64,000 bases of DNA. It comes from a virus. Its lineage: Duplodnaviria > Caudoviricetes. The stretch lies in IMG/VR virus record IMGVR_UViG_3300015375_000872, positions 481 to 64,480 of that record. One strand, 5' to 3'. Below the pieces are notes generated by a model. The model saw nothing but the letters and a program-made list of their open reading frames with translations, searched no databases and had not been told where the DNA came from. Below are positions 2,741-51,912 of this stretch, piece after piece; within the stretch, counting starts at the first letter, position 1; the number at the start of each line of letters is the position of its first letter. The translations under genes were made by a program, and so were the position numbers.

Positions 2741-3262
2741 ATGAAACTTTTAATTTTAGACCTTGACGGTACGGTTCGGATTAAGAAAGGTGGTGTGATT
2801 GGTGAATTTGAATCAGGGTTCATTGATTCACCTGAAGACCAGGAAATTATACCTGGTGCTATGTCGGCCATCAAAAAGTATCATTCAGAAGGGTGGATGA
2901 TTGTAGGTTGTAGTAATCAAGGGGGAGTTGCTGCGGGTCATAAAACTCTTGATTCATGTTTTGAAGAGCATAAGTATACAATCAAGTTAGTTCCAATGAT
3001 TGATAAGATTTACTTTTGTCCTGATTATGAAGGCAATAAATTAGGAGTTGTCAATCAAGTAAAACAGCGTATATACACCCCTAAAATTAACGAGGGTTCA
3101 TATCGTAAACCTAACCCTGGAATGATATGGTTTGCAATGGACTATTACTCGATTATACCGTCAATAAATGAAGTTTTAATGATTGGTGACAGAGACACTG
3201 ATGAGCAGTGTGCTATCGCTGCGGGTGTACCCTTTCAATGGGCTAAAGATTGGTGGTGTTAG
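2741..3262 (+). CDS. HAD-superfamily IIIA phosphatase (GmhB/HisB-like)
   Basis: DLDGT motif I, SNQGG, YFCP, RKPNPGM, MIGDRDTD. Confidence 0.85.
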   Translation: MKLLILDLDGTVRIKKGGVIGEFESGFIDSPEDQEIIPGAMSAIKKYHSEGWMIVGCSNQGGVAAGHKTLDSCFEEHKYTIKLVPMIDKIYFCPDYEGNKLGVVNQVKQRIYTPKINEGSYRKPNPGMIWFAMDYYSIIPSINEVLMIGDRDTDEQCAIAAGVPFQWAKDWWC

Positions 3263-8493: not shown

Positions 8494-9318
8494 ATGATGG
8501 ATGCTTTGCAACCTGGTGACGACTCACCCGCCTTTAGTGGGAATCCAGACCCTACACAGAGGGAACCCAGAAAGCCTAATAAAACACAGAAACGGGTAGT
8601 TATTTTATTAATAACAATTGCAGTCTGTGGCTTCATTAGCTGGGTAGGTAATCAATCGGGGATAATTAAAAAATTTGCTCCTAATGTTCCTGTTGCTGAA
8701 TCCGTGAATAATACACAGCCAATGGCAGTAGAAGCGACTGGACAAAACCCAACTGAAACTAACAGTGATTCTGGAGAATTTCAACCCTCTCCTGATTTGG
8801 AAGTCCAACGTAATGAGCAACTAGAGAAGGCACTCAATGAGGTTGGATTTCAGATTAACAACCTCAGTGAAGCTGTTGCTGAGGATTTCCTTTTACAAGC
8901 CAGAACAGCTATTGCCAAAGAGCCAATTTCTATCGAGTTGTTTCTAGTCAAGAAGATTAACTATTTGGCCAATAAATTAGACAAGGCAACACTAGAAGGT
9001 GAATTCACGGGGAGTGCAAAAGAACGAGAGAAAGCAGCCAACTTACTGTTTGAGGTTTGGGGGAACCTCTTAGCTCTTAAAAAGCATTGGTCAACAACCG
9101 CAGGGAATCAGATTCAATTAAATTTTACCTCTGTTAATGTTTCGGTTTTAGCGAGTGACGTTCGACAATTTAGTGAAACAGCAATGACCTTGAGAGCGTT
9201 GACTTATGAACAACAAAAACGCACTGAGGCACTACAAAAACAACTTGAATTAGAAGCCAAAAAACAAGCTGAGTTAGAAGCTAAAAAGGAGGTGAAAAAA
9301 GATGGTAAAACCAAGTAG
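8494..9318 (+). CDS. Single-pass membrane protein with helical/coiled-coil C-terminal domain
   Basis: KRVVILLITIAVCGFISWVG TM segment; heptad C-terminus. Confidence 0.75.
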   Translation: MMDALQPGDDSPAFSGNPDPTQREPRKPNKTQKRVVILLITIAVCGFISWVGNQSGIIKKFAPNVPVAESVNNTQPMAVEATGQNPTETNSDSGEFQPSPDLEVQRNEQLEKALNEVGFQINNLSEAVAEDFLLQARTAIAKEPISIELFLVKKINYLANKLDKATLEGEFTGSAKEREKAANLLFEVWGNLLALKKHWSTTAGNQIQLNFTSVNVSVLASDVRQFSETAMTLRALTYEQQKRTEALQKQLELEAKKQAELEAKKEVKKDGKTK

Positions 9319-10729
9319 TTTCACAAAGGATAATTGGGGAGTTGCCATCGCTACAACATTAGGATTATCAGCTATTGGATTGTTTACCGCATCTTCAACC
9401 CAAGTGGAGGATATAAAAGGAATTTCACCTTATCAAAACCAAAAGGGTGAATGGGGTCATACATTAGTTATCGAACGTAAGCCTATGGAGAATTCCCCTT
9501 TATTGTTCCTCTTGGGTTTGGGATGTCTCGGAGGACTAGCAGGGACTCTTTTAGGGGATGATTCTATGGTCAAGATTGAATCCCTGCCAAACACAGTGCC
9601 GGACACAGTAAATAAAAGTCTGGCCTGGACAGTTTGGGGTATTGGTCAAGCTTTGGACAGCTTAGGAGAATGGGGCGAGAAGGGTTACTCTAAATCTTCT
9701 CAATTGGTTATTCGAGCTATCCCGCCGGAAATCAAAAGCAAATTTCAATCAATCAAGAATGACCATGCTTGGGTGTCAGATTTCCTTGCCTTACCTCACC
9801 AGAGAATCACAGGGGGGACTGGTTCAGGTAAATCAAAATTATTGGGCTTGGTCATCTCCCAGTGGCTCGAAAACAATCCCAATGGACAACTTTTTGTTGC
9901 AGACCCAAACTACGGAAAACCTGATGACGATGGCTATCTTAATGATTGGTTTGGGCTTGACTCGAAGTGGATTAAACAACCCGATGATGAAATTGATTGT
10001 TTGATTGATTATGTTCACGGTGAACTTGATAAACGGATTAAAACTTGTGTGGATGGGGTCAAGAATGGGGCTAAAAAGCTTTCTGACCTTCAAATTGACC
10101 TAACACCAATTTGCTTAATTTGTGAAGAGTTCGATTCGATTGTTGAACGTTACAAGAGCGACAAAACATCATCTCGCTTTGAAAAATTAATCGAAATCAT
10201 TAAGCAGGGAAGGGGTTACAAAATCAAACTAATCCCAGTTGGACAAAGTGCTTCAGTTGGCGAAGGTGGTTTTTCACTTGCAACCCTTGAGAATATCGCT
10301 CAATTAATCATCTGTTACCCATCTATTCCTGAAAGTCAATTAAGGTACTTAGGAGGTGCAAAAGATGAACTAATCGAAATAGTAGAACGGTTAATCAAAG
10401 AGGGTAAACGTCCTGCTATTTGTACAATCAAAGGTCAATCAAGAGTTGTTACAATTCCTGACCTATCAGGATTTAACGTCACTTTTACCAACAGTAACCC
10501 AGTTGACCCCGATGATATTTGGTGGCAGGAAATCAACACGGAAACCTTTAAATTATCTCTTGAACTCCGAGCCGTTAAATATTCTCAAGGATTGATTCAA
10601 TCACCACTTAAACAAATTTGTTCTGAGATTGGGATTGAGCCACGCTCAACAAATAAACGGTATACCCAATACCTTAAACCCGTGTGGGAATCTGCACTAT
10701 CTGAAGCCAAAACACTCGCTAAAAACTAG
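9302..10729 (+). CDS. Membrane-anchored FtsK/HerA-superfamily P-loop ATPase
   Basis: Two N-terminal TM segments, Walker A GGTGSGKS, LFVADP strand, Walker B ICEEFD, arginine-finger KQGRG, basic C-terminal helical tail. Confidence 0.8.
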   Translation: MVKPSSFTKDNWGVAIATTLGLSAIGLFTASSTQVEDIKGISPYQNQKGEWGHTLVIERKPMENSPLLFLLGLGCLGGLAGTLLGDDSMVKIESLPNTVPDTVNKSLAWTVWGIGQALDSLGEWGEKGYSKSSQLVIRAIPPEIKSKFQSIKNDHAWVSDFLALPHQRITGGTGSGKSKLLGLVISQWLENNPNGQLFVADPNYGKPDDDGYLNDWFGLDSKWIKQPDDEIDCLIDYVHGELDKRIKTCVDGVKNGAKKLSDLQIDLTPICLICEEFDSIVERYKSDKTSSRFEKLIEIIKQGRGYKIKLIPVGQSASVGEGGFSLATLENIAQLIICYPSIPESQLRYLGGAKDELIEIVERLIKEGKRPAICTIKGQSRVVTIPDLSGFNVTFTNSNPVDPDDIWWQEINTETFKLSLELRAVKYSQGLIQSPLKQICSEIGIEPRSTNKRYTQYLKPVWESALSEAKTLAKN

Positions 10730-10740
10730 GAGAATCTACC

Positions 10741-10977
10741 ATGAAAATCTTTAAATATACATTAATCACATTAGTCGCTTTAACTGTTTATTTTGGAGTT
10801 AAAGACCTAACTGTAGATGGTGTCTTAAAAGCTGGCGTTGAGAAAGGATGGGGTGTAGTTAATTTATTGTTCGGAGGCAACATTAACGCATCTAACAGCC
10901 GTCCGTTACCTCCCAATCAAGGTGATGATTCAGAGGCACAATTAACACCCATTGAAGAATTAAAGGATGTTGAATAA
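10741..10977 (+). CDS. Small membrane protein
   Basis: N-terminal TM YTLITLVALTVYFGV; AGGAG RBS. Confidence 0.7.
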   Translation: MKIFKYTLITLVALTVYFGVKDLTVDGVLKAGVEKGWGVVNLLFGGNINASNSRPLPPNQGDDSEAQLTPIEELKDVE

Positions 10978-11330
10978 TGCGATTCATCTACTATTCTGGC
11001 TCACTCCTTGGGTGGGCTTTTCTAATCTATTTTTGCTGGAATCAGTCTATCCCTTGGTGGTTTAAAAAGGGTGTATCCGAGTCGGTTAAAGCTGTTCCTG
11101 AAATTGCCAAAACAATTCCTAAAGATGATTGGGGGAAACCCAAGGAAGAACCTAAAAAAGATGGTGATAAACCATCGGAATCGGAATCAAAAACCGAACA
11201 ATCAGAACAGTCCAAAAAATTGTTTTCAGGTGAGATTCAAGTCGGAAAATTGCGTTCACGGTATAACCTTGATATCCCACAGGATAAGCAGTCAGAGTCA
11301 GTCGGTAAGCAAGATATGGGAGCTAAGTAG
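10977..11330 (+). CDS. Small membrane protein
   Basis: N-terminal TM SLLGWAFLIYFCW; TAATG coupling to the previous gene. Confidence 0.7.
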   Translation: MRFIYYSGSLLGWAFLIYFCWNQSIPWWFKKGVSESVKAVPEIAKTIPKDDWGKPKEEPKKDGDKPSESESKTEQSEQSKKLFSGEIQVGKLRSRYNLDIPQDKQSESVGKQDMGAK

Positions 11331-11332
11331 AT

Positions 11333-11914
11333 ATGAACAATAGGAAGATTGAGGAGAGGTTGAGCGAGTTAGAATCAAACCTTGATGATGTTTGGTTTTG
11401 GGTTTTTATTGTTGCAATTTTGTTAGGGTTCAGTGTTGTTAAATTCGGGTCAATCTCTCCTCAGACTTCCACACAACAAAACACCCAGTCCTCAACATTC
11501 CAACCATCAAAAGATGCTCCTAAATTTATTTATCCACTGCCATCGAAAGTAACAATTGGGTCGGGTTTTGGGATGCGTACACACCCAGTCACCGGGAAAC
11601 AACAAATGCACTCCGGTGTTGATATGGGAGCAGCAACGGGTACACCTATTTATGCTGTTGCTGATGGTCAAGTAGAGAGTGCTAGAGAGTTGGGTAACTG
11701 TGGTAACGGGGTTAGGATTAATCACAGTGGCGGTTATATGAGCGTTTACTGCCACGCTTCAAAATTGTTAGTAAAGGTTGGTCAATCGGTCAAGAGCGGC
11801 GACACTATCGCGCTAGTTGGTTCAACCGGAATGAGTACAGGCCCTCACTTGCATTTAGGGATGAAATTAAATGGCGAGTGGATTGACCCTAAAAAAGTTG
11901 TGCCTTTGGAGTAG
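11333..11914 (+). CDS. Membrane-anchored M23 metallo-endopeptidase
   Basis: HSGVD, YCH and HLH zinc motifs; TM VWFWVFIVAILLGFSVV. Confidence 0.92.
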   Translation: MNNRKIEERLSELESNLDDVWFWVFIVAILLGFSVVKFGSISPQTSTQQNTQSSTFQPSKDAPKFIYPLPSKVTIGSGFGMRTHPVTGKQQMHSGVDMGAATGTPIYAVADGQVESARELGNCGNGVRINHSGGYMSVYCHASKLLVKVGQSVKSGDTIALVGSTGMSTGPHLHLGMKLNGEWIDPKKVVPLE

Positions 11915-25675: not shown

Positions 25676-25846
25676 ATGAATGAAACCAGTCAATCAAATT
25701 TGACACTAGAGCAACAATTCAAGTTAAAAGCATTGAGTGATGATGTTATGAAATTAACGCTACCAGAAGCTCAAGCTTATCTGATAGAGATGTTTAAAAA
25801 GGATATGGTCAAGGATAATTTGATTAAAGAATGGATGAAACGATAA
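25676..25846 (+). CDS. nblA: Phycobilisome degradation adaptor NblA (missed by ORF track)
   Basis: My translation: MNETSQSNLTLEQQFKLKALSDDVMKLTLPEAQAYLIEMFKKDMVKDNLIKEWMKR*. The LTLEQQF...EAQ..L...M.K.N pattern is the NblA signature. Confidence 0.85.
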   Translation: MNETSQSNLTLEQQFKLKALSDDVMKLTLPEAQAYLIEMFKKDMVKDNLIKEWMKR

Positions 25847-26067
25847 TGGATGAAACAACAAGTTTTCAAGACTTTATAGACATTAATGAAAGTTTGACCT
25901 TGACAGTTGAGCAAGAATTTAGATTAGCTTTAGCTAGAGAGGAAATAAAGGGTTATCCCATGGAAGATTTACAAGACCAATACTTAACCATTTATAGACT
26001 TTTTTTGATGAAGTCTAACCTACTCGAAAAGATGTTAAAAGATAAGGTTTCAGAAATCAATGGATAG
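25846..26067 (+). CDS. nblA: Second, divergent NblA-like protein (track start 25831; ATG 25846 overlaps the nblA stop)
   Basis: LTVEQEFRLALAREEI...DLQDQYLTIYRLFLMKSNLLEKML fits the NblA two-helix pattern; TAATG coupling. Confidence 0.7.
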   Translation: MDETTSFQDFIDINESLTLTVEQEFRLALAREEIKGYPMEDLQDQYLTIYRLFLMKSNLLEKMLKDKVSEING

Positions 26068-26374: not shown

Positions 26375-26609
26375 ATTGAAAATTAAACCTAATTACTATC
26401 AACTAGAAAGATGTAAAGAGGTTTGGGATGTTGAGCGAAAAATCTTAGATGATTGTGATATTTTTAAACATAATCCTATGGTTTTTAAGCTTTGGTGTTC
26501 AGCATTTGAATATATTTTCAGATGTGGAATGAAAGATGATATTATTAAAGATATCCGAAAAGCTATCACGAACTTAGAGAAAATTATTGAATTATTGGAG
26601 GAAAAATAA
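26367..26609 (+). CDS. DUF3310-like protein, possible nucleotide kinase (track start 26343)
   Basis: PNYY...E...D....F....AFEYIFRCGMKDD..KDIRKA..NL; adjacent to thyX. Confidence 0.55.
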   Translation: MDELKIKPNYYQLERCKEVWDVERKILDDCDIFKHNPMVFKLWCSAFEYIFRCGMKDDIIKDIRKAITNLEKIIELLEEK

Positions 26610-27328
26610 TGGATAAATTTAGAGTTGATGTTATTAGAAAGACTGAGAATCCTCAACAAATAATATATTTAGCGTTACATCAATGTTACAGCGAAAACTA
26701 CGTCTTTGAAAACATTGATAGAATACCATCTGAAAAAGAATGTGGGGAGATAGCTGTTAAAAGATTGTTGGCGGGTGATAGAGGGCATTGGAGTTGTGTC
26801 GAAACTTGTTACATCGTGTTTAACGTTGGTTATTTTCCTCATAGTGTTATGCAACAAGCAACACGCCATAGAATCATGAGTTTTAGTGTTGAATCAATGC
26901 GTTATTCAGGACAACGGATTATAGACGTTGTTGATGGTAAACGTGATATTGAAGATGTGTTTTACCTGCGTCCCATTGGGGAATATTCAGACCGTCAAGG
27001 AAAAAAATATGAATATACAGAAAAACAACGACGATTACACTTTGATTATTGCTTAGAAGCTTGTGAATTTTACAAATATAATATTGAGTCAGGAATGTCT
27101 GAGGAACACGCACGGGGTCTTATACCATTCGATTTTAGACAACATTTTGTAATGAGTTGTAACCTGCGTTCACTCTTACACTTCCTCGATTTACGCTTTA
27201 AAAAAGATGCTCAAATTGAAATACAAAAACTCTCTGAATTGATGTGGGGACATACTCAAGAATGGGTTCCTGAAATTGCTAGTTGGTATGAGAAAAACCG
27301 ATTAGGAAAAGCTAGACTTGCGCCTTAA
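26609..27328 (+). CDS. thyX: Flavin-dependent thymidylate synthase
   Basis: GHWSCVE, QATRHRIMSFSVESMRY (RHRxxSxxxxSxRY), EHARG, NLRSLLHFLDLR. Confidence 0.95.
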   Translation: MDKFRVDVIRKTENPQQIIYLALHQCYSENYVFENIDRIPSEKECGEIAVKRLLAGDRGHWSCVETCYIVFNVGYFPHSVMQQATRHRIMSFSVESMRYSGQRIIDVVDGKRDIEDVFYLRPIGEYSDRQGKKYEYTEKQRRLHFDYCLEACEFYKYNIESGMSEEHARGLIPFDFRQHFVMSCNLRSLLHFLDLRFKKDAQIEIQKLSELMWGHTQEWVPEIASWYEKNRLGKARLAP

Positions 27329-27357
27329 TAATACTAATGTTATTATTGAATAATAAT

Positions 27358-27430
27358 GCACTCTTGGCTGATTGGGGAAGCAGCAAACTCATAATTTGCT
27401 TTCAGGTTGGTTCGATTCCAACAGGGTGCA
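27358..27430 (+). tRNA. tRNA with CAT anticodon, most likely tRNA-Ile2 (lysidine, reads AUA); elongator Met not excluded
   Basis: Acceptor GCACTCT/AGGGTGC, D-arm GCT/AGC, anticodon arm GCAAA-CTCATAA-TTTGC, T-arm GTTGG-TTCGATT-CCAAC, discriminator A, no encoded CCA. Confidence 0.88.
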
Positions 27431-27460
27431 TTTGTTAACTTTAAAAACAAATCATTTAAA

Positions 27461-27925
27461 ATGTTTTTAGAACTTCCAACTCAATTAAAATTACAACGGT
27501 TACATCCTGACGCAATCATCCCTGAATATGCCAATCATGGTGATGTAGGGTTAGATTTGTCAACAATTGATAGTGGAGTCTTGAAACCTGGTGAACGGGG
27601 TTTATTTAAGTCGGGATGGGCTATGGAATTAACCAACCCAGACTACTGCTTACAGGTATTCCCACGCTCAGGGTTGGCTCTTAAACATGGGGTTACTGTA
27701 TTGAATGCACCAGGATTAATTGATTTTAATTATCGTGGTGATGTTGGTGTGATTTTGATTAATCACGGTCAAGAGGATTTTATAGTTTTTAAAGGCATGA
27801 GAGTCGCACAATTGGTGGTATCAAGAGTTCTAAAATTGAACGGTCAAGGTGATATTATGGTAGTTGAAAGTTTATCATCTCCTAACAGTAGAGGTGAATT
27901 AGGTTTTGGTTCAACAGGAGTTTAG
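27461..27925 (+). CDS. dut: Trimeric dUTPase (ATG 27461; track start 27407 overlaps the tRNA)
   Basis: GLDL, PRSGLA, GLIDFNYRG, RVAQLV, RGELGFGSTG. Confidence 0.95.
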   Translation: MFLELPTQLKLQRLHPDAIIPEYANHGDVGLDLSTIDSGVLKPGERGLFKSGWAMELTNPDYCLQVFPRSGLALKHGVTVLNAPGLIDFNYRGDVGVILINHGQEDFIVFKGMRVAQLVVSRVLKLNGQGDIMVVESLSSPNSRGELGFGSTGV

Positions 27926-27927
27926 TT

Positions 27928-28590
27928 ATGAAATTCAAAGAAATTCAAGTAGTATCAATTGACAAGATTAAACCTTATCCAAAGAACACTAAGAAACATC
28001 CACAAACCCAGATTGATAAATTAGTCAAGCAACTAGCTCAGGGTTTTGACCAGCCTATAGTTGTTGATAAAAATTTTGTAATTATAAAAGGTCATGCTCG
28101 ATATTTAGCTGCACAACAAATGGAGCTTGAAGAGGTTCCTATTATCATGCGTGATGATTTAACCGATAAACAGGTTAAAGCTATCAGAATAGCTGATAAC
28201 AAGATAGCTGAGAGTGAATGGGAAATCGATATTTTAACTGAAGAGTTAAACGACTTAATTGACGATTTTAACTTAGTTGATTTAGGATTCAGTCAAACTG
28301 AACTTGATGATTTATTAGGTGAAATGTCCGGTGATGAATTTGACTATGAATATGGTGAAGATATCGGTGATGATGAAGAGTCTGATGATTCTAATGTTTC
28401 TGGTGATAATATACCAGAATCTTCTGTTAGGATGGCACAGTTATTTTTAGATACTAAAACCCATCCATTATTCATTGAAATGACTGATAAACTTAACGAA
28501 CTCTATGGAACAGACAACCCAACAGATTGTGTCATGGCAGGACTCAGAGAACTCTGTCAAAACCATAAAATTAAGCTGGAAAATGCCTGA
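27928..28590 (+). CDS. ParB/Srx N-terminal domain protein
   Basis: IKPYPKNTKKHP, GFDQPIVVD, IIKGHARYLAA, IRIADNKIAE; acidic linker. Confidence 0.85.
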   Translation: MKFKEIQVVSIDKIKPYPKNTKKHPQTQIDKLVKQLAQGFDQPIVVDKNFVIIKGHARYLAAQQMELEEVPIIMRDDLTDKQVKAIRIADNKIAESEWEIDILTEELNDLIDDFNLVDLGFSQTELDDLLGEMSGDEFDYEYGEDIGDDEESDDSNVSGDNIPESSVRMAQLFLDTKTHPLFIEMTDKLNELYGTDNPTDCVMAGLRELCQNHKIKLENA

Positions 28591-29695
28591 TGAGCAAGCT
28601 GATAAATTTAAAGGTGAATATCTTGATGAATCAAATTATGATTATTTGATAACAGAACCTTGTTTAATATTAAAACCTGATGGTTCACCTTTGGTTAGGG
28701 TTGTTAGAGGTGAACTCAAGGATGATTCCTACTCTAAAATGTTATCTGATAAAATAAAAGGCTTGCCTGATAACAGGGGAACATCAACAGGAAAAGATTT
28801 GTTAACGGATCAAGGTAGCAATAGGAAACGTCCTGTTAAATCAGGATACAATTCTAATACCACAAGGGTTGATAAATCAGCTTTTTCTGTTTTAGTTGAA
28901 ACACCTATTCAGACATCTAAAAATAGGGGTAATTCAACAGGTAACGGGTTTAAAGCTAAAAAGATATTAACCGATGGAACATTTTCAAAAACAACTAATA
29001 CAATTGACCCTTTAACCGGAAAATATTTAGAAGTTAATAGTGGTATTATCGGTTATTTTGACAGATACCCTAGATTCCCTTACGCTAGAGAGACATCGTT
29101 TTTAATAAATCACAGGAAGCAGTGGGAGTTATTACAACCGTTTATTAATAGAGTTAATAGCATCTTTAAGAAATACCTTCCTGAGCGTTATAACATTCAA
29201 AAAGAAATGGTTAGTCATGTTTCACCTGATTGGATAATTGGTGATACAGCTTTTTCTACCATCACAGTAAACAAGAGTTATAGAACCGCTTGCCACAAAG
29301 ATGCGGGGGATTTAAAAGAAGGTTTTGGGGTGATGGCTTATTTCCAAAAAGGAACGCTTGATGGTGGTTATTTGGTTTTACCTGCTTATCGTGTTGCTGT
29401 CAAGTTTCAGCATTGCGATGTTGCTCTTTTTGATGTTCATGAATGGCACGGTAACACACCTATAAAAGCCAAGTCTGAAGACTCAATGCGTGTTACTTGT
29501 GTATTCTATTTGAGAGAAAGTTTGTTAAGGTGTGGTAATGCTGCTTATGAATTAAATCGAGCCAAGAAAGTTAGGCAGATTGGCAAACTTTACGATAAAG
29601 AAGAAATTGAAAAAGCTGAAAATATTAAGAAAGAGGTTTTAAAAAATCATGGTATTTCCTATCCTTATCCCAAGCAAAAAAAGACCAAAAAGTAA
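28505..29695 (+). CDS. TET/JBP-family 2-oxoglutarate Fe(II) dioxygenase (start uncertain; alternative ATG 28583)
   Basis: FSTITVNKSYRTACHKDAGD (HxD), DVHEWHGNT (distal His), RVTCVFYLRE (2OG-binding Arg). Confidence 0.85.
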   Translation: MEQTTQQIVSWQDSENSVKTIKLSWKMPDEQADKFKGEYLDESNYDYLITEPCLILKPDGSPLVRVVRGELKDDSYSKMLSDKIKGLPDNRGTSTGKDLLTDQGSNRKRPVKSGYNSNTTRVDKSAFSVLVETPIQTSKNRGNSTGNGFKAKKILTDGTFSKTTNTIDPLTGKYLEVNSGIIGYFDRYPRFPYARETSFLINHRKQWELLQPFINRVNSIFKKYLPERYNIQKEMVSHVSPDWIIGDTAFSTITVNKSYRTACHKDAGDLKEGFGVMAYFQKGTLDGGYLVLPAYRVAVKFQHCDVALFDVHEWHGNTPIKAKSEDSMRVTCVFYLRESLLRCGNAAYELNRAKKVRQIGKLYDKEEIEKAENIKKEVLKNHGISYPYPKQKKTKK

Positions 29696-30383
29696 ATTAT
29701 TTCAATTATTGAAAGATGACGGTTTAGATTTTTTTATTTTTGTTGAACCTCAAGATTATGATAATTATAGTTACTTAAAAAATATAATAATACTACCCGA
29801 AAATAATAAAGGATTGGTTTTTTCTAGGAATTATATACTAAAAAAATCTATTGAGTTAGGTTCAAATTGGTTTTGGATGTTGGATGATGATGTTAATAAA
29901 TTCTACAAAACTGTTAATAAAAGGAATATTACAATAACGCCGAGAGAAGCTTTTGAATTATCCGAGAATATTATTTTAAAATCAGATAATGTTGCTCAAG
30001 CTGCAATGGAGTATCAACAGTTTTCATGGAGTCAAGCAAAATCGTTAAATTATAATTCATATTGCGATGTTGTTGTTTGTATAAATGTCAATAAAACAAA
30101 AAATATTAAATATAGAGAAAATGTAACACTTAAGGAAGATAGAGATTTTACTTTACAATGTCTATCTAGGGGATATAACACTCTGAGGACTACTCATGTC
30201 GCTTTTTCTTGTCCTAAAAACGGAAGCAATGAAGGCGGATTATATGATGTTTATAAATCAGGTCTTGAGCGTAATTCAGTGGATATGATGTGTAAGATTT
30301 GGGGTAAAGATATATGCCAACCTGTTTTAAAGAAAGGTGGTAGATATGATGTAAAAATTAATTGGAAATATTTTAAACATTAA
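29649..30383 (+). CDS. TET-associated glycosyltransferase (GT-A fold, TAGT-like)
   Basis: IPSKKRP, RNYIL, FWMLDDD, KEDRDFTLQ, NGSNEGGL. Confidence 0.8.
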   Translation: MVFPILIPSKKRPKSKLFQLLKDDGLDFFIFVEPQDYDNYSYLKNIIILPENNKGLVFSRNYILKKSIELGSNWFWMLDDDVNKFYKTVNKRNITITPREAFELSENIILKSDNVAQAAMEYQQFSWSQAKSLNYNSYCDVVVCINVNKTKNIKYRENVTLKEDRDFTLQCLSRGYNTLRTTHVAFSCPKNGSNEGGLYDVYKSGLERNSVDMMCKIWGKDICQPVLKKGGRYDVKINWKYFKH

Positions 30384-30384
30384 A

Positions 30385-30409
30385 AAAGCTAACCATAATG
30401 GTTAGCTTT
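30385..30409. terminator. Bidirectional terminator between convergent genes
   Basis: AAAGCTAACCA-taa-TGGTTAGCTTT. Confidence 0.75.
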
Positions 30410-30432: not shown

Positions 30433-31341
30433 TTATTCCTTGCCTCTCATTTGAAGAGATGTTTTATGCGCTTGAATTTCATGGTAAGGACTTCTCCACT
30501 CTCCGCCTTCATAGAACCATGAATGAGTAACTGTTTTTTTATTAACTCGAATCACTTTATACCATATACCGCCAACCTTGACATAATCACCTTTCTTAAT
30601 ATTATTAGCATCAATTCTCAGCCCTCCAGCTTCATCAAACTGTTGTTGCCAATACGCTAATTTTTCTTCTTCCTCTTTCTTCTGTTGAGCGAAATATGGC
30701 GAGTCTTCATACTTTACATAAGCTCGAATCTTAGCTTCACAGTCTTTGATTCGGTTGCCTATGAACTCGATGCTATGACCCTCTGCGTTTGATGCTGCTA
30801 CGGCTGCTTTATATTCGTAGTGTTCAGCTTTTTTCTGATGTTCAACACTCTTACCCATAGCGTTATGAGAACGGTCTAAATCACGTCTGTGGCGTTTTTC
30901 TGAGTGATGACCTATAAGGATAGGTTGACCTAACGGGATGCCTGCTACAGCGTCTTTAGAAGCCTGATAATAAGCGTTAGACTTCTGAGCGTTCTTTTGT
31001 GCCAACTCTTCATATCGTTCAGCCCTTGATAACGCTCTTTCTGCCTTTGTTTCCTGTTGCTCTGCAAAACTTGTCTTGTCTTCTTCACCAAGCTTTTCAA
31101 CATCCTCTGATGGGTCATCCCAGAAGTTGAAGTTATTCTTTGAGCTTCGAGGGTAAGGACGACCACCAAGGTCATACAAGGCATCACGATATTCGTTGAG
31201 TGTTAATCCTGTCACTGTCCAAACTTCACGAGGTTTCTTACCCGGTTTAGTTGGTTCGGTCATCTTTTTAGTTACTACTAACCCATTGGGATATTTAACA
31301 GTGATGGGTTGAAATTCTGTTTCAATATGTTGAGAAGTCAT
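30433..31341 (-). CDS. DUF3560-domain early protein
   Basis: AERYEELA...IPLGQPILIGHHSEKRHRRDLDR motif. Confidence 0.75.
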   Translation of the reverse strand: MTSQHIETEFQPITVKYPNGLVVTKKMTEPTKPGKKPREVWTVTGLTLNEYRDALYDLGGRPYPRSSKNNFNFWDDPSEDVEKLGEEDKTSFAEQQETKAERALSRAERYEELAQKNAQKSNAYYQASKDAVAGIPLGQPILIGHHSEKRHRRDLDRSHNAMGKSVEHQKKAEHYEYKAAVAASNAEGHSIEFIGNRIKDCEAKIRAYVKYEDSPYFAQQKKEEEEKLAYWQQQFDEAGGLRIDANNIKKGDYVKVGGIWYKVIRVNKKTVTHSWFYEGGEWRSPYHEIQAHKTSLQMRGKE

Positions 31342-33100: not shown

Positions 33101-33994
33101 TTAAGCTGTTGCTAATTGTCTCTCGAATTTGGCTTTACGGCTGTTATAAAACCGTTTGATTTCATTGCTAGTGAAGAGTGCGTCAAAACCGTTATCTTCG
33201 GTGTTATTGACTGAAGTGGTGCAGAAGTCTAAGAGGAACTTAATCCAGTTTGTGATTTTTGTAGCGTCTGTGGTTCCGCTATGATGGCGGAATTCAATTG
33301 TCTGGTGGCGACGGTATGATTGAAGATTGAGCTTGCTGTAGCGTGTACATTGGAGCTGTGAAAGGGCGTTAATGGTTCGGCAGTGGTCTAAAGCACTAGC
33401 ATCAAATGTGTTGGCTAGAGATGCACAAAAATGATTGTTATTACCCCGTCTTGATTGTGGTTGAATTGCATCTAAATGGTGTTCATTGTTTAACCAGCGT
33501 CGGACAATTGACTTAACTTTTTTAACACCCAAGACATCAGCCCCGATGTGGACGTGTAGTCCACATTTTTTGTCAACTTTACAACCAATTCGATTGAGTG
33601 TTTCTGCAACTTTTTTAACTTGATTTAAACCCTCTTGACCTGACAGGATAGGACTTACAATTTCTAACCCGCATGATCTATCAGTGATAATTTTCCATTG
33701 ACTGCAAGTATTGTGATTATAGTTCTGGTATTCCGCATCAATACCAGCATCTTGTAAAGCCTCCTCGATATCTCTAATGTACACGTTCATATCTAGGATT
33801 TCAATTTCAACACCGAAAGTTAATTCATTATTTGTTCCGTTTTCTTCAATCAATTCAATCCGTTCATCTTCTAACCGATTCATAATTCTTCTATATTCGT
33901 TTTGTAAGATGTAACGCTTCTGATTTAACTTTATTGTGGTGTAACCTTGGGCGCGATATCCTTTTAATACTTGTTGGAGTTGACGGTAGTTCAT
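33101..33994 (-). CDS. Putative amidoligase (COOH-NH2 ligase type 2, glutamate-cysteine ligase fold)
   Basis: TFGVEIE, WKIITDRSCGLEIVSPIL, CGLHVHIG, RYSKLNL, TIEFRHHSGT. Confidence 0.85.
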   Translation of the reverse strand: MNYRQLQQVLKGYRAQGYTTIKLNQKRYILQNEYRRIMNRLEDERIELIEENGTNNELTFGVEIEILDMNVYIRDIEEALQDAGIDAEYQNYNHNTCSQWKIITDRSCGLEIVSPILSGQEGLNQVKKVAETLNRIGCKVDKKCGLHVHIGADVLGVKKVKSIVRRWLNNEHHLDAIQPQSRRGNNNHFCASLANTFDASALDHCRTINALSQLQCTRYSKLNLQSYRRHQTIEFRHHSGTTDATKITNWIKFLLDFCTTSVNNTEDNGFDALFTSNEIKRFYNSRKAKFERQLATA

Positions 33995-34136: not shown

Positions 34137-35318
34137 CTATATCACGTCTTTGGTGATAGAGTACCAATCATCAAAGCTTTTAATTTTGGTGTACTCACCC
34201 TTAGTTATGAGCTTGTCAACCCAATTCTTGTATGCTTGGGTGTAAAAATCGTCTTGTACAGTCAACACTTGTTCTTGTAGCTGTTCTTGTGGTTCAGGTG
34301 TTGCTATTGGGAACTGAATCAAGTTTGATGTTTCTGTTTCGGGTTTAATTGTATTTAGGATATCGTCAAGGGTTGTATTGACTCCAAACCCTACATATCG
34401 AGCATAACTATAACCTTGGGGGTCAACCAAGACGTAATCACTACCATTAGTTACCACAACCGCAATTTTATAAATCTCATTCAACCATTTTTTATATTCT
34501 TCCTCATCATTCCGAAGTGAAATCATGTCATCATATTTAGTTTCGTATGTGCTATTATTTCCACCTTTATCATCTAACCATTCCCGATGTTCTAGTAACG
34601 AATGTGTGAAAGTTTCGTAGTCCACTGGTGTTAGTTCAATAATTTCAGAAATTTGAACCCTGACGATATTTGATTCTGTTTGGTTTAAATATTCTTCTAA
34701 CCAGTCTTGTTTATTCAAAGTCGGAAATTTACCTTTGATATAAATCGGTTCAGCCAATGAATAAATATTAGATGGTGTGATAATTTCTTCAGTATCTAAA
34801 ACTTTTTCTTGTTCAGGTTTAAATGTTTCTGTTTCTGTTTCTGTCTGTTTTTTCAAATCTTCATAGTATCTGGTTTTTTCGTAGGGTTCACTACCATACT
34901 CATCTATGAAAGCTGTTGCTACGCCGTTTTGAAGATATTTGTGATATTGTTTTGTTGCCCAATAATCCTCTTTACCAGTTTCGGTATTATCAAAGCGTTT
35001 CCATGTATCATTCCATTTGGCATCTGAATATTTTTTGGCTTCAGTAGCTTCTTTAGCCCAATCTTTTCGCTCTTGTGTATATGTAGGACTAAGTTCAACG
35101 CTGTAACCTGTTGACCATGCTGTGTCGTACATACTGTCACCGTAATGCTCTACGGTTTCATGTTTTTTAGCAATGTCTTTAACATTAGCTAGTGTTGCGT
35201 TAGTTCCGATTTCCATTACCCAAGAAACACTGACATAACGGCGGTGAGTTGTGACTGAAAACTTGATTCCTGGGAAGGTTTGAGTCAATTCTTTTTTAAG
35301 GTTGCGTGAAATAGTCAT
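34137..35318 (-). CDS. Multidomain early protein with LPD29-like N-terminus
   Basis: LKKELTQTFPGIKFSV N-terminus; DPQGYSYARYVG motif. Confidence 0.55.
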   Translation of the reverse strand: MTISRNLKKELTQTFPGIKFSVTTHRRYVSVSWVMEIGTNATLANVKDIAKKHETVEHYGDSMYDTAWSTGYSVELSPTYTQERKDWAKEATEAKKYSDAKWNDTWKRFDNTETGKEDYWATKQYHKYLQNGVATAFIDEYGSEPYEKTRYYEDLKKQTETETETFKPEQEKVLDTEEIITPSNIYSLAEPIYIKGKFPTLNKQDWLEEYLNQTESNIVRVQISEIIELTPVDYETFTHSLLEHREWLDDKGGNNSTYETKYDDMISLRNDEEEYKKWLNEIYKIAVVVTNGSDYVLVDPQGYSYARYVGFGVNTTLDDILNTIKPETETSNLIQFPIATPEPQEQLQEQVLTVQDDFYTQAYKNWVDKLITKGEYTKIKSFDDWYSITKDVI

Positions 35319-50538: not shown

Positions 50539-51912
50539 TTAATTTATATTCATTCTTTTATTATAATTTCTAATTATTGCTTTCTCTCTATCTTTAATAC
50601 GACTGATTTCTTCATTTATGCTATTCTTAAATGGCATATTGTTTTGTGGTGCTGAGGAATTCATAAAGTCAGCCAGCTTAATAAACGAGTTTTCCTCACT
50701 CACATCTAATATTAAAAGTTGATCTTTTTTATCTTTAAAATAATTAACAACATCCAAATAGTGATTTGAGTATGCTGATGATAAAATATAATCAATTTTT
50801 TCATCATCTATACATTTTGCTAAATTATAACCGTAAAACTTTTCATAATTTTCTGCTAAAAATCCTCTTATCATTTTTCTTTCCTCTGCTTGTTCTGGTG
50901 ATAAAATTGGTTCAGTTTTTTCCATCATATCATTCCATAATTTAATATAATGCTTAACGCTATCCATCCATTTTTTCATATCTCTAATTGTTAATATAAA
51001 CTTAGAGTTTTGGTAAATAGAATCTAACTCTTTATACATAGAAGGGATTGGAACATCGGTAAAACCCTCGTACATATCTAAACATAGTTGAACATCATCA
51101 AAACTTTTAATATTATTACTATAATGAACACTATCAACTCCTAACATATTTAACGCTTGATTAAGTGATGAAGTTCCGGTTCTTGATAATCCAATCCCAA
51201 AAACTCTATTTTTTATATTATCTATTTTTAGGTATGGATGTTCTGCAACAGGATTAGCCAACAGCGAGTCATTAGGTTTCTTCCTCCACCAACAATTCAT
51301 AAATATCGAAGCGTTATAAGTTTTAAATTTTAATTTATGACAAACCTCGCTAAATATTAAATCCTCATTTATACCAACACTCCTATCTTTATTATCTTTA
51401 TATTTCAATCTAATTGAATCGCTTAAATTATACCCATAAGTGTATTCAGACATTTTATATTTATCACTATCAAGAATTCCGCTTTCTAAAATTTTTATTG
51501 CAGCATCTCTTCTAATTAATTGAAAACTTCCATGAAGTCTATTAGGATTACAATCTTTTGGAAAATATGGCGATACCACATCTATATCTTCATCATATTC
51601 TAAGCTTATTGATTTGAATATCCGGGTATCGGGGTCAATCCTTAAAACCCATTGAGAATCACCAATCACCCCTTGATCTAACCAACGTTTAACCCATGCT
51701 CCCCCTTGGCTGCTCAAATATAATCTTTCACCTTTAAGATATCTAACATTATTAAACTCGCAAAAATCTTTAAGTGTTGGGATGTTGACCCCATCACTTA
51801 TTAAAACAATTTCAGGTTTATATTCTTCCGTTTTATAAAGATTAATAATTGAAAGAATATTATCCTTAGCTAAGAAATAATCGCTTCTCGTATTCATCAC
51901 AATCGTTAGCAT
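50539..51912 (-). CDS. Glycosyltransferase (GT-A) fused to a sulfotransferase-family P-loop domain
   Basis: N-terminal WVLRIDPD (DxD) and INED; C-terminal VFGIGLSRTGTSSL...FTDVP...KFILTIRD. Confidence 0.75.
   Translation of the reverse strand: MLTIVMNTRSDYFLAKDNILSIINLYKTEEYKPEIVLISDGVNIPTLKDFCEFNNVRYLKGERLYLSSQGGAWVKRWLDQGVIGDSQWVLRIDPDTRIFKSISLEYDEDIDVVSPYFPKDCNPNRLHGSFQLIRRDAAIKILESGILDSDKYKMSEYTYGYNLSDSIRLKYKDNKDRSVGINEDLIFSEVCHKLKFKTYNASIFMNCWWRKKPNDSLLANPVAEHPYLKIDNIKNRVFGIGLSRTGTSSLNQALNMLGVDSVHYSNNIKSFDDVQLCLDMYEGFTDVPIPSMYKELDSIYQNSKFILTIRDMKKWMDSVKHYIKLWNDMMEKTEPILSPEQAEERKMIRGFLAENYEKFYGYNLAKCIDDEKIDYILSSAYSNHYLDVVNYFKDKKDQLLILDVSEENSFIKLADFMNSSAPQNNMPFKNSINEEISRIKDREKAIIRNYNKRMNIN

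Follow-up and report, generated by a model that had tools for sequence, protein, structure and literature searches.

Glycosylated 5-hydroxymethyluracil (5hmU) is the base J of trypanosomes. Phages encode two subclasses of thymine dioxygenases, one of which is inactive on double-stranded DNA (dsDNA) unless a neighboring small ParB-like protein is co-expressed (O'Toole et al., PNAS 2026, PMC13229309; preprint 10.1101/2025.08.14.668559). For 5mYOX176, 5mYOX185, and 5mYOX177, conversion of T to 5hmU on dsDNA requires the cognate ParB both in E. coli and in vitro, and the published modification levels range from 1 to 35% of T; sequence preferences of NTR and YTY are published for 5mYOX176 and 5mYOX97 (PMC13229309). 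The window analyzed here, a 64,000-nucleotide stretch of viral DNA (Caudoviricetes), corresponds to the linear IMG/VR record IMGVR_UViG_3300015375_000872 of 64,480 bases minus its first 480, with a CheckV completeness of 68%. It carries a cassette of three overlapping genes for a ParB-like protein, a TET/JBP dioxygenase, and a TAGT glycosyltransferase. We propose, with a probability of roughly 0.6, that this cassette carries out a post-replicative thymine hypermodification of the published ParB-dependent kind and makes O-glycosyl-5hmU. It represents neither a new system nor a new category; it is a good example of the oxidizing pair published in 2025-26, found here in a freshwater cyanophage and followed by a predicted TAGT step. 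An earlier prediction, made from the letters of this DNA and hereafter called the original prediction, had described three overlapping genes for a ParB N-terminal domain, a TET/JBP enzyme with an intact HxD...H...R motif, and a TAGT-like enzyme, located after thyX, a tRNA, and dut; the open reading frames (ORFs), the domains, and the motif are all confirmed by our analysis.

The ParB partner in the published pairs consists of a nucleotide-binding domain (NBD) and a C-terminal dimerization domain, has no DNA-binding domain, and contains a short structured segment and a ~50-aa unstructured linker between the two; the ParB proteins of M. xanthus and C. crescentus are named as its closest structural homologs (PMC13229309). 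The dioxygenases contain a variable insert, 26-52 aa long in the ParB-dependent subclass, which governs activity and ParB dependence, and a C-terminal extension is described for the ParB-dependent subclass only (PMC13229309). Among the mined 5mYOX pathways, a cytosine C5-methyltransferase (C5-MTase) is present in 6%, while the most frequent neighbors are glycosyltransferases (31%) and ParBs (27%) (PMC13229309).

Adjacency to a ParB-like gene is also the conserved signal of the locus described here. We compared it with 80 IMG/VR loci, whose dioxygenases are 35-46% identical to that of the window, 18 metagenome loci (up to 97%), one genome locus, and several cultured phages; the IMG/VR relatives were found with an alignment query, a single-protein scan of IMG/VR having given none. 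Of the 80 IMG/VR loci, 76 have a co-oriented ParB-like gene immediately 5' of the dioxygenase gene, as do 80 of 98 loci overall; most of the loci without it end at a contig edge. Likewise, the Pfam domain ParB_N is found in 30 of 40 relatives' records. In contrast, no more than 2 of the 98 loci have thyX or dut close to the dioxygenase gene, and one of these is from the same phage; the same thyX/dut order is seen in a 97%-identical contig (L082). These two genes are context and not a conserved component of the module. The original prediction had used this thymidylate context as an argument for T as the substrate. Since thyX and dut are not conserved near the dioxygenases of the relatives, their presence is compatible with T but constitutes weak evidence for it.

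AlphaFold2 (AF2) models the ParB-like protein (pLDDT 82.7) as an NBD (residues 1-95), short helices (100-131), a disordered, acidic linker (136-161), and, at 178-212, a C-terminal domain (CTD) of two helices, with no helix-turn-helix (HTH) DNA-binding domain between NBD and CTD. The N-terminal domain is of the ParB/Srx type, with the GHAR motif at aa 55-58, and the top Foldseek neighbors are Noc, M. xanthus ParB, and C. crescentus ParB, in matches that span the NBD part only. Both NBD and CTD are conserved in an alignment of 30 ParB partners of related dioxygenases, as is the CTD motif S-V-R/K-M-V-Q-L-F...D-N-x-T-D; in the protein of the window, K replaces the usual R of the N-x-R motif. Phages often encode ParB_N proteins, which PHROG calls partition proteins, and the gene could accordingly encode a conventional ParB, of the partition or nuclease type, belonging to a plasmid-like prophage and functionally unlinked to the dioxygenase. 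We consider this highly improbable. Partition of the ParABS type involves an HTH domain and a ParA partner; the former is absent from the model and the latter from the record, in which no match to PF13614 or PF01656 was obtained. Furthermore, the stop of the ParB-like gene overlaps the start of the dioxygenase gene by 8 nt, the adjacency of the two genes is conserved as stated above, and functional dependence has been published for such pairs (PMC13229309).

The dioxygenase, a 5-methylpyrimidine dioxygenase (5mYOX) predicted to act on thymine, is made of the Tet_JBP domain alone (370 aa), without a J-binding or SNF2 domain. Its catalytic residues for iron and 2-oxoglutarate, H238-K-D240, H286/H289, and R303 (370-aa numbering), are invariant in 30 homologs, the two histidines belonging to an HEWHGN motif at aa 286-291. 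The jelly roll is confidently predicted in the AF2 model, with CMD1, NgTET1, CcTet, and human TET2 as Foldseek neighbors, whereas a sequence search of the PDB returned only marginal matches to TET2 (E = 0.005). The last conserved cysteine, C317, is followed by a 53-aa extension with two predicted helices at 320-355. A QL[SD]LF-type clamp-binding motif was looked for by eye at the C-termini of the dioxygenase, the TAGT, and the ParB-like protein, and none was seen.

The most singular part of the dioxygenase is its variable-insert region, which runs from the N-terminal sheet to the GYFDRY motif (N64 to G157) and measures ~93 aa. It includes a clade-specific insert of ~50 aa (aa 62-122, pLDDT <50), common to this enzyme and its nearest relatives, which brings a second NRG-x-STG motif. 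We single out this insert as the structural oddity of interest because published work ties the variable insert to activity and ParB dependence. An internal duplication was considered as its origin and not retained, the support being weak (local score of 39, equaled in 61 of 2000 shuffles, p ~0.03). In one metagenome variant (run X15), 18 nt of the insert are deleted at 28794 with the reading frame preserved. Separately, a metatranscriptome contig (X16, depth ~25) lacks 11 nt at 29452, which would cause a frameshift just past the second iron-binding histidine; this loss, not seen in DNA run X1, could reflect either faulty assembly or a defective variant.

The features of the 5mYOX176/ParB176, 185, and 177 group (clade C1, 'clade E' in the preprint) that can be read from genes and structural models are all present in the window. 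As in these systems, a small ParB-like gene stands directly upstream of a TET/JBP dioxygenase of ~300-370 aa with its oxygenase residues, the ParB-like protein is built of an NBD, short helices, a linker, and a CTD without a DNA-binding domain, the dioxygenase continues past its last conserved Cys into a C-terminal extension, no C5-MTase gene is a neighbor, and the source is a metavirome of the IMG/VR type. The locus differs in its downstream tailoring gene, which encodes a TAGT glycosyltransferase, in its insert region, which reaches ~93 aa instead of 26-52 aa, the excess coming from the extra insert of ~50 aa, and in its ParB-like protein, which has GHAR and a K for R in N-x-R. This comparison sets published descriptions beside a system known from its genes, and the placement with clade C1/E is a probable one, suggested by shared features rather than by a joint tree with the 5mYOX176/ParB176 sequences.

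In a FastTree phylogeny of 92 enzymes with SH-like support, the dioxygenase is nested in an 82-row clade (support 99) to which all the ParB-linked enzymes belong. Outside this clade fall ParB-less enzymes: those of Stenotrophomonas phage DLP6, Synechococcus phage S-CBWM1, several metagenome contigs, and Melnitz, whose dioxygenase gene follows an HhaI-type C5-MTase gene. Among cultured phages, the Pelagibacter phage HTVC112P (complete genome, 32.5 kb) offers a close parallel in gp17-gp19, in which a ParB-like gene precedes the gene of a 36%-identical dioxygenase in the same order and orientation; its third gene, however, encodes an FkbM methyltransferase and not a glycosyltransferase, and its host is marine SAR11. 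In the cultured flavobacterial Nonlabens phage P12024L (L100, genes 26-28), a dioxygenase, a TAGT-like gene, and a DNA methyltransferase are found without a ParB; its dioxygenase lies on a long branch inside the ParB-linked clade, and this phage may represent a natural loss of the ParB partner. The complete genome of the Planktothrix phage PaV-LD contains no dioxygenase homolog. The two closest 50%-cluster representatives, P0005 (629 aa) and P0010 (661 aa), were examined as possible fusions with ParB or a glycosyltransferase; this was rejected, each being a tandem fusion of two Tet_JBP domains. Finally, the complete ParB-dioxygenase-TAGT trio recurs at 9214-11664 of a 49-kb contig (L106, JAAHHN010000022.1) of the Spirulina sp. 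SIO3F2 metagenome-assembled genome (MAG).

The TAGT family was reportedly named by Iyer et al. in 2013, who are said to have predicted the trypanosome base-J glucosyltransferase as a member. The third protein of the cassette matches the TAGT profile PF20691 with 87.2 bits (cut-off 27.5) over profile positions 1-199 of 205, and its GT-A motif is DDD at aa 79-81. A TAGT gene lies directly 3' of the dioxygenase gene in all five relatives at 56-97% identity for which downstream DNA is available (L081, L083, L085, L086, L088), as well as in three IMG/VR loci (L011, L019, L023) and in the Spirulina contig. Over the clade at large a TAGT is uncommon, with a Pfam match in 5 of 40 records, and its linkage is patchy on the dioxygenase tree, at least six changes being needed. 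Because it is rare in the wider clade and scattered on the tree, the TAGT behaves as an exchangeable tailoring module. It is predicted to glycosylate the hydroxymethyl base, and its gene context suggests that it acts directly on 5hmU. GT-A enzymes encoded beside 5mYOX genes do put the first sugar directly on the hydroxymethyl base, in experiments carried out on 5hmC only, and these phage DNA glycosyltransferases resemble the trypanosome JGT in fold (Pyle et al. 2024, 10.1101/2023.12.21.572611).

Based on the above data, we propose the following mechanism, in which thymine oxidation and ParB dependence are taken from the literature on such pairs. The phage DNA would replicate with ordinary T, as is consistent with the presence of thyX and dut upstream and with the lack of any ThyA-type hydroxymethylase in the record (six-frame profile search, control positive). 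ThyX and the dUTPase would supply dTTP and hold dUTP low, and hence place T, the predicted substrate, in the DNA. The Fe(II)/2-oxoglutarate dioxygenase would then hydroxylate the 5-methyl group of some thymines in double-stranded phage DNA into 5hmU, for which it would require, on duplex DNA, the small ParB-like protein encoded upstream. Lastly, the GT-A enzyme would move a sugar from a nucleotide-sugar donor to the new hydroxyl group, with O-glycosyl-5hmU as the predicted, base-J-like product. The original prediction had already read the cassette as a route from T to 5hmU and glycosyl-5hmU; this is still the best-supported reading, the idea itself being already published as far as thymine oxidation is concerned. 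The resemblance to the kinetoplastid base J pathway (JBP1/JBP2 and JGT) lies in the predicted conversion of T to 5hmU by a TET/JBP oxygenase and the subsequent O-glycosylation by a GT-A enzyme. The cassette differs from that pathway in being viral and contained in one operon, in lacking J-binding and SNF2 domains, and in including a ParB-like activator that trypanosomes do not have.

Several points weigh against this proposal, and those that concern the substrate lead to an alternative in which the dioxygenase acts on 5-methylcytosine (5mC), made by host C5-MTases or by a phage enzyme, and the TAGT produces glycosyl-5hmC (PMC8256090). The record is ~68% complete, and a phage C5-MTase could sit in the missing third. 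Filamentous cyanobacterial hosts hold several C5-MTases; the Spirulina bin in which the same trio is found has 4-5 of them, on contigs other than that of the trio. Moreover, the published ParB-dependent enzymes oxidize 5mC too, in vitro (PMC13229309), and the GT-A precedent just cited is likewise confined to 5hmC. We nevertheless regard oxidation of 5mC as unlikely here. A six-frame search of the whole 64.5-kb record with PF00145, which matched in 9 of 14 control genomes, gave no C5-MTase candidate, although this stretch includes replication and nucleotide-metabolism genes; N6/N4 and D12 methylases were also absent from the record (six-frame profile searches, controls positive). C5-MTases are scarce in the clade as a whole, a match being found in 2 of 40 relatives' records, and the four relatives' records that are at least 99% complete contain one weak match of 25 bits. 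The 5mC enzymes of clades A and B have an adjacent C5-MT (Burke et al. 2021, PMC8256090), whereas the dioxygenase of the window groups with the ParB-linked enzymes and separately from that of the Melnitz type, whose gene stands behind a C5-MTase gene. The phage C5-MT/TET/GT pathways to glycosyl-5hmC share with the cassette the principle of a post-replicative oxidation that creates a hydroxymethyl handle for a neighboring GT-A enzyme (PMC8256090; 10.1101/2023.12.21.572611); they differ from it by the adjacent C5-MTase, by the clade (A/B and not ParB-linked), and by the substrate, Gp5mC there and, as predicted, T here. The original prediction had stated that no C5-MTase is present, which holds for the 64 kb, while absence from the whole phage is not established by a record of 68% completeness; an exact-match scan with the last 42 bases of the window, intended to extend the genome, found nothing. 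Its premise that characterized phage TETs oxidize 5mC describes the state of 2021, phage thymine dioxygenases having been characterized since then (PMC13229309).

A second group of points concerns the glycosyltransferase. The T2/T6 β-glucosyl-HMC-α-glucosyltransferase, which shares Pfam PF20691 and PHROG 842 with the third gene of the cassette and is the sole biochemically assigned phage TAGT, acts on an already glucosylated base and not on the hydroxymethyl group. The pair could accordingly make 5hmU while the TAGT adds a second sugar to a glycan begun by another enzyme, or glycosylates a target other than DNA. Such a sugar-on-sugar activity would be in line with the patchy linkage on the tree, and the window does contain another glycosyltransferase-like region, fused to a sulfotransferase. 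We find this scenario quite unlikely, however, for the cassette contains no further glycosyltransferase, and the TAGT gene, besides its overlap with that of the dioxygenase, is kept directly 3' of it in every near relative with downstream DNA available and in the Spirulina contig. In addition, the GT-A enzymes beside 5mYOX genes, with their JGT-like fold, transfer the first sugar to the base. The setting also differs from that of T2/T6, where the enzyme adds a second glucose to glucosyl-5hmC of pre-replicative origin: in the window there is no first glycosyltransferase, and the modified base would be made on the polymer.

Further points against O-glycosyl-5hmU as the product are that many ParB-dependent homologs yield <5% 5hmU even with ParB (PMC13229309), and that the ParB-dependent subclass is tied mainly to kinases, GATases, and amino-acid:DNA transferases, not to glycosyltransferases (PMC13229309). 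The dioxygenase of the window and its relatives closer than the published set are known from their genes, and no report of glycosyl-5hmU in a phage was found in the literature searched. This gives the cassette its value: being compact, with three overlapping genes, and recurrent, it is a convenient candidate with which to show a glycosyl-5hmU step in phages.

As for the biological role, the composition of the window suggests that the modification probably does not shield the DNA from Type II restriction in general. The window contains 11 GATC sites for ~224 expected and 14 GGCC sites for 44 expected, and of the 64 six-base palindromes, 32 do not occur at all. Among those with four G/C, 19 of 24 are missing, versus 4.4% of non-palindromic words of equal composition; among those with two G/C, 8 of 24 are missing (ACTAGT, AGTACT, ATGCAT, CATATG, TCTAGA, AGATCT, ACATGT, and TACGTA), versus 0.2% of comparable non-palindromes. 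Other palindromes are not avoided, such as AAGCTT (39 occurrences), GATATC (34), CAATTG (34), and GAATTC (18). The original prediction had proposed that the modification protects the DNA against the many restriction systems of cyanobacteria. A blanket shield of this kind should relax selection against palindromes, yet their avoidance is extreme, and many of the avoided sites hold thymines in contexts that the published enzymes prefer; palindrome avoidance thus argues against such a role. Site-selective marking, or protection against other classes of defense, is more likely, and the pattern fits a partial, context-selective modification, a role toward other defenses, or one in DNA handling. Alternatively, site avoidance could predate the cassette. 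The coexistence of a DNA-modification cassette and very strong restriction-site avoidance within 64 kb makes this phage well suited to the question of what purpose such modifications serve. A more elaborate version of our proposal, which we hold to be doubtful, is that a true base-J-like O-glycosyl-5hmU is placed at selected T contexts as a ParB-gated mark for packaging, replication timing, or evasion of defenses other than Type II restriction, the doubled insert setting the choice of site or the dependence on ParB.

The position of the cassette and of the features around it is given in the table below. The genes from thyX through TAGT form an uninterrupted, co-oriented string on the plus strand (26609-30383). 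The start of dut is probably the ATG codon retained in the table, because the longest ORF, from a TTG at 27407, runs 25 nt into the tRNA-Met gene. For the dioxygenase, the ATG at 28583 is favored by the database gene model and by the alignment of 30 homologs, and the ORF start at 28505, which would lengthen the overlap with the ParB-like gene from 8 to 86 nt, is probably not the real one. The dioxygenase and TAGT genes share 47 nt. A hairpin with a perfect stem, flanked by the stop codons of the TAGT gene and of a convergent DUF3560 gene, is probably a two-way terminator that closes the plus-strand gene string, as judged from its match to the consensus alone.

Features of the cassette and its surroundings (positions in the window)
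Feature	Position	Strand	Details
HAD / PNK3P-type phosphatase gene	2741-3262		25 kb from the cassette
Two NblA genes	25676-26067		just upstream of the gene string
thyX	26609-27328	+	Pfam Thy1, 1e-43
tRNA-Met(CAT)	27357-27431	+	between thyX and dut; ARAGORN
dut	probably 27461-27925	+	Pfam dUTPase, 1.2e-24
ParB-like gene	27928-28590	+	220 aa; ParB_N PF02195, 4.7e-9; phrog_620, 2.7e-45
TET/JBP dioxygenase gene (predicted 5mYOX)	28583-29695 (ORF readable from 28505)	+	Tet_JBP PF12851, 1.7e-26; phrog_24024, 5.8e-63
Clade-specific insert of the dioxygenase	28742-28948	+	
Catalytic motifs of the dioxygenase	29294-29302, 29438-29455, 29486-29509	+	
TAGT glycosyltransferase gene	29649-30383	+	244 aa; PF20691, 1.9e-24; phrog_842, 1.2e-26
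Hairpin, probable terminator	30385-30409	.	perfect 11-bp stem; terminator scan, consensus match alone
DUF3560 gene	30433-31341	-	convergent with the cassette
Amidoligase_2 gene	33101-33994	-	
LPD29-domain protein gene	34137-35318	-	
Glycosyltransferase-like region fused to sulfotransferase	50539-51912		

The two NblA genes bear out the original prediction that the source is a cyanophage, an attribution that we consider justified. Sequencing runs of freshwater, aquatic, aquaculture, and wastewater samples, belonging to 14 studies, contain near-identical DNA. Contigs from a metatranscriptome library cover the ParB-like and dioxygenase genes at ≥ 99% identity, which indicates presence in an RNA library and is not proof of transcription. 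On the minus strand, convergent with the cassette, the genes between 30433 and 35318 encode the DUF3560, Amidoligase_2, and LPD29-domain proteins together with small ORFs without a Pfam match, a set that resembles the injected or 'polyvalent' anti-defense proteins of mobile elements. A gene for a phosphatase of the HAD / PNK3P type lies far upstream of the cassette; the published list of genes that co-occur with 5mYOX pathways includes HAD phosphatases (PMC13229309, Fig. 9 legend).

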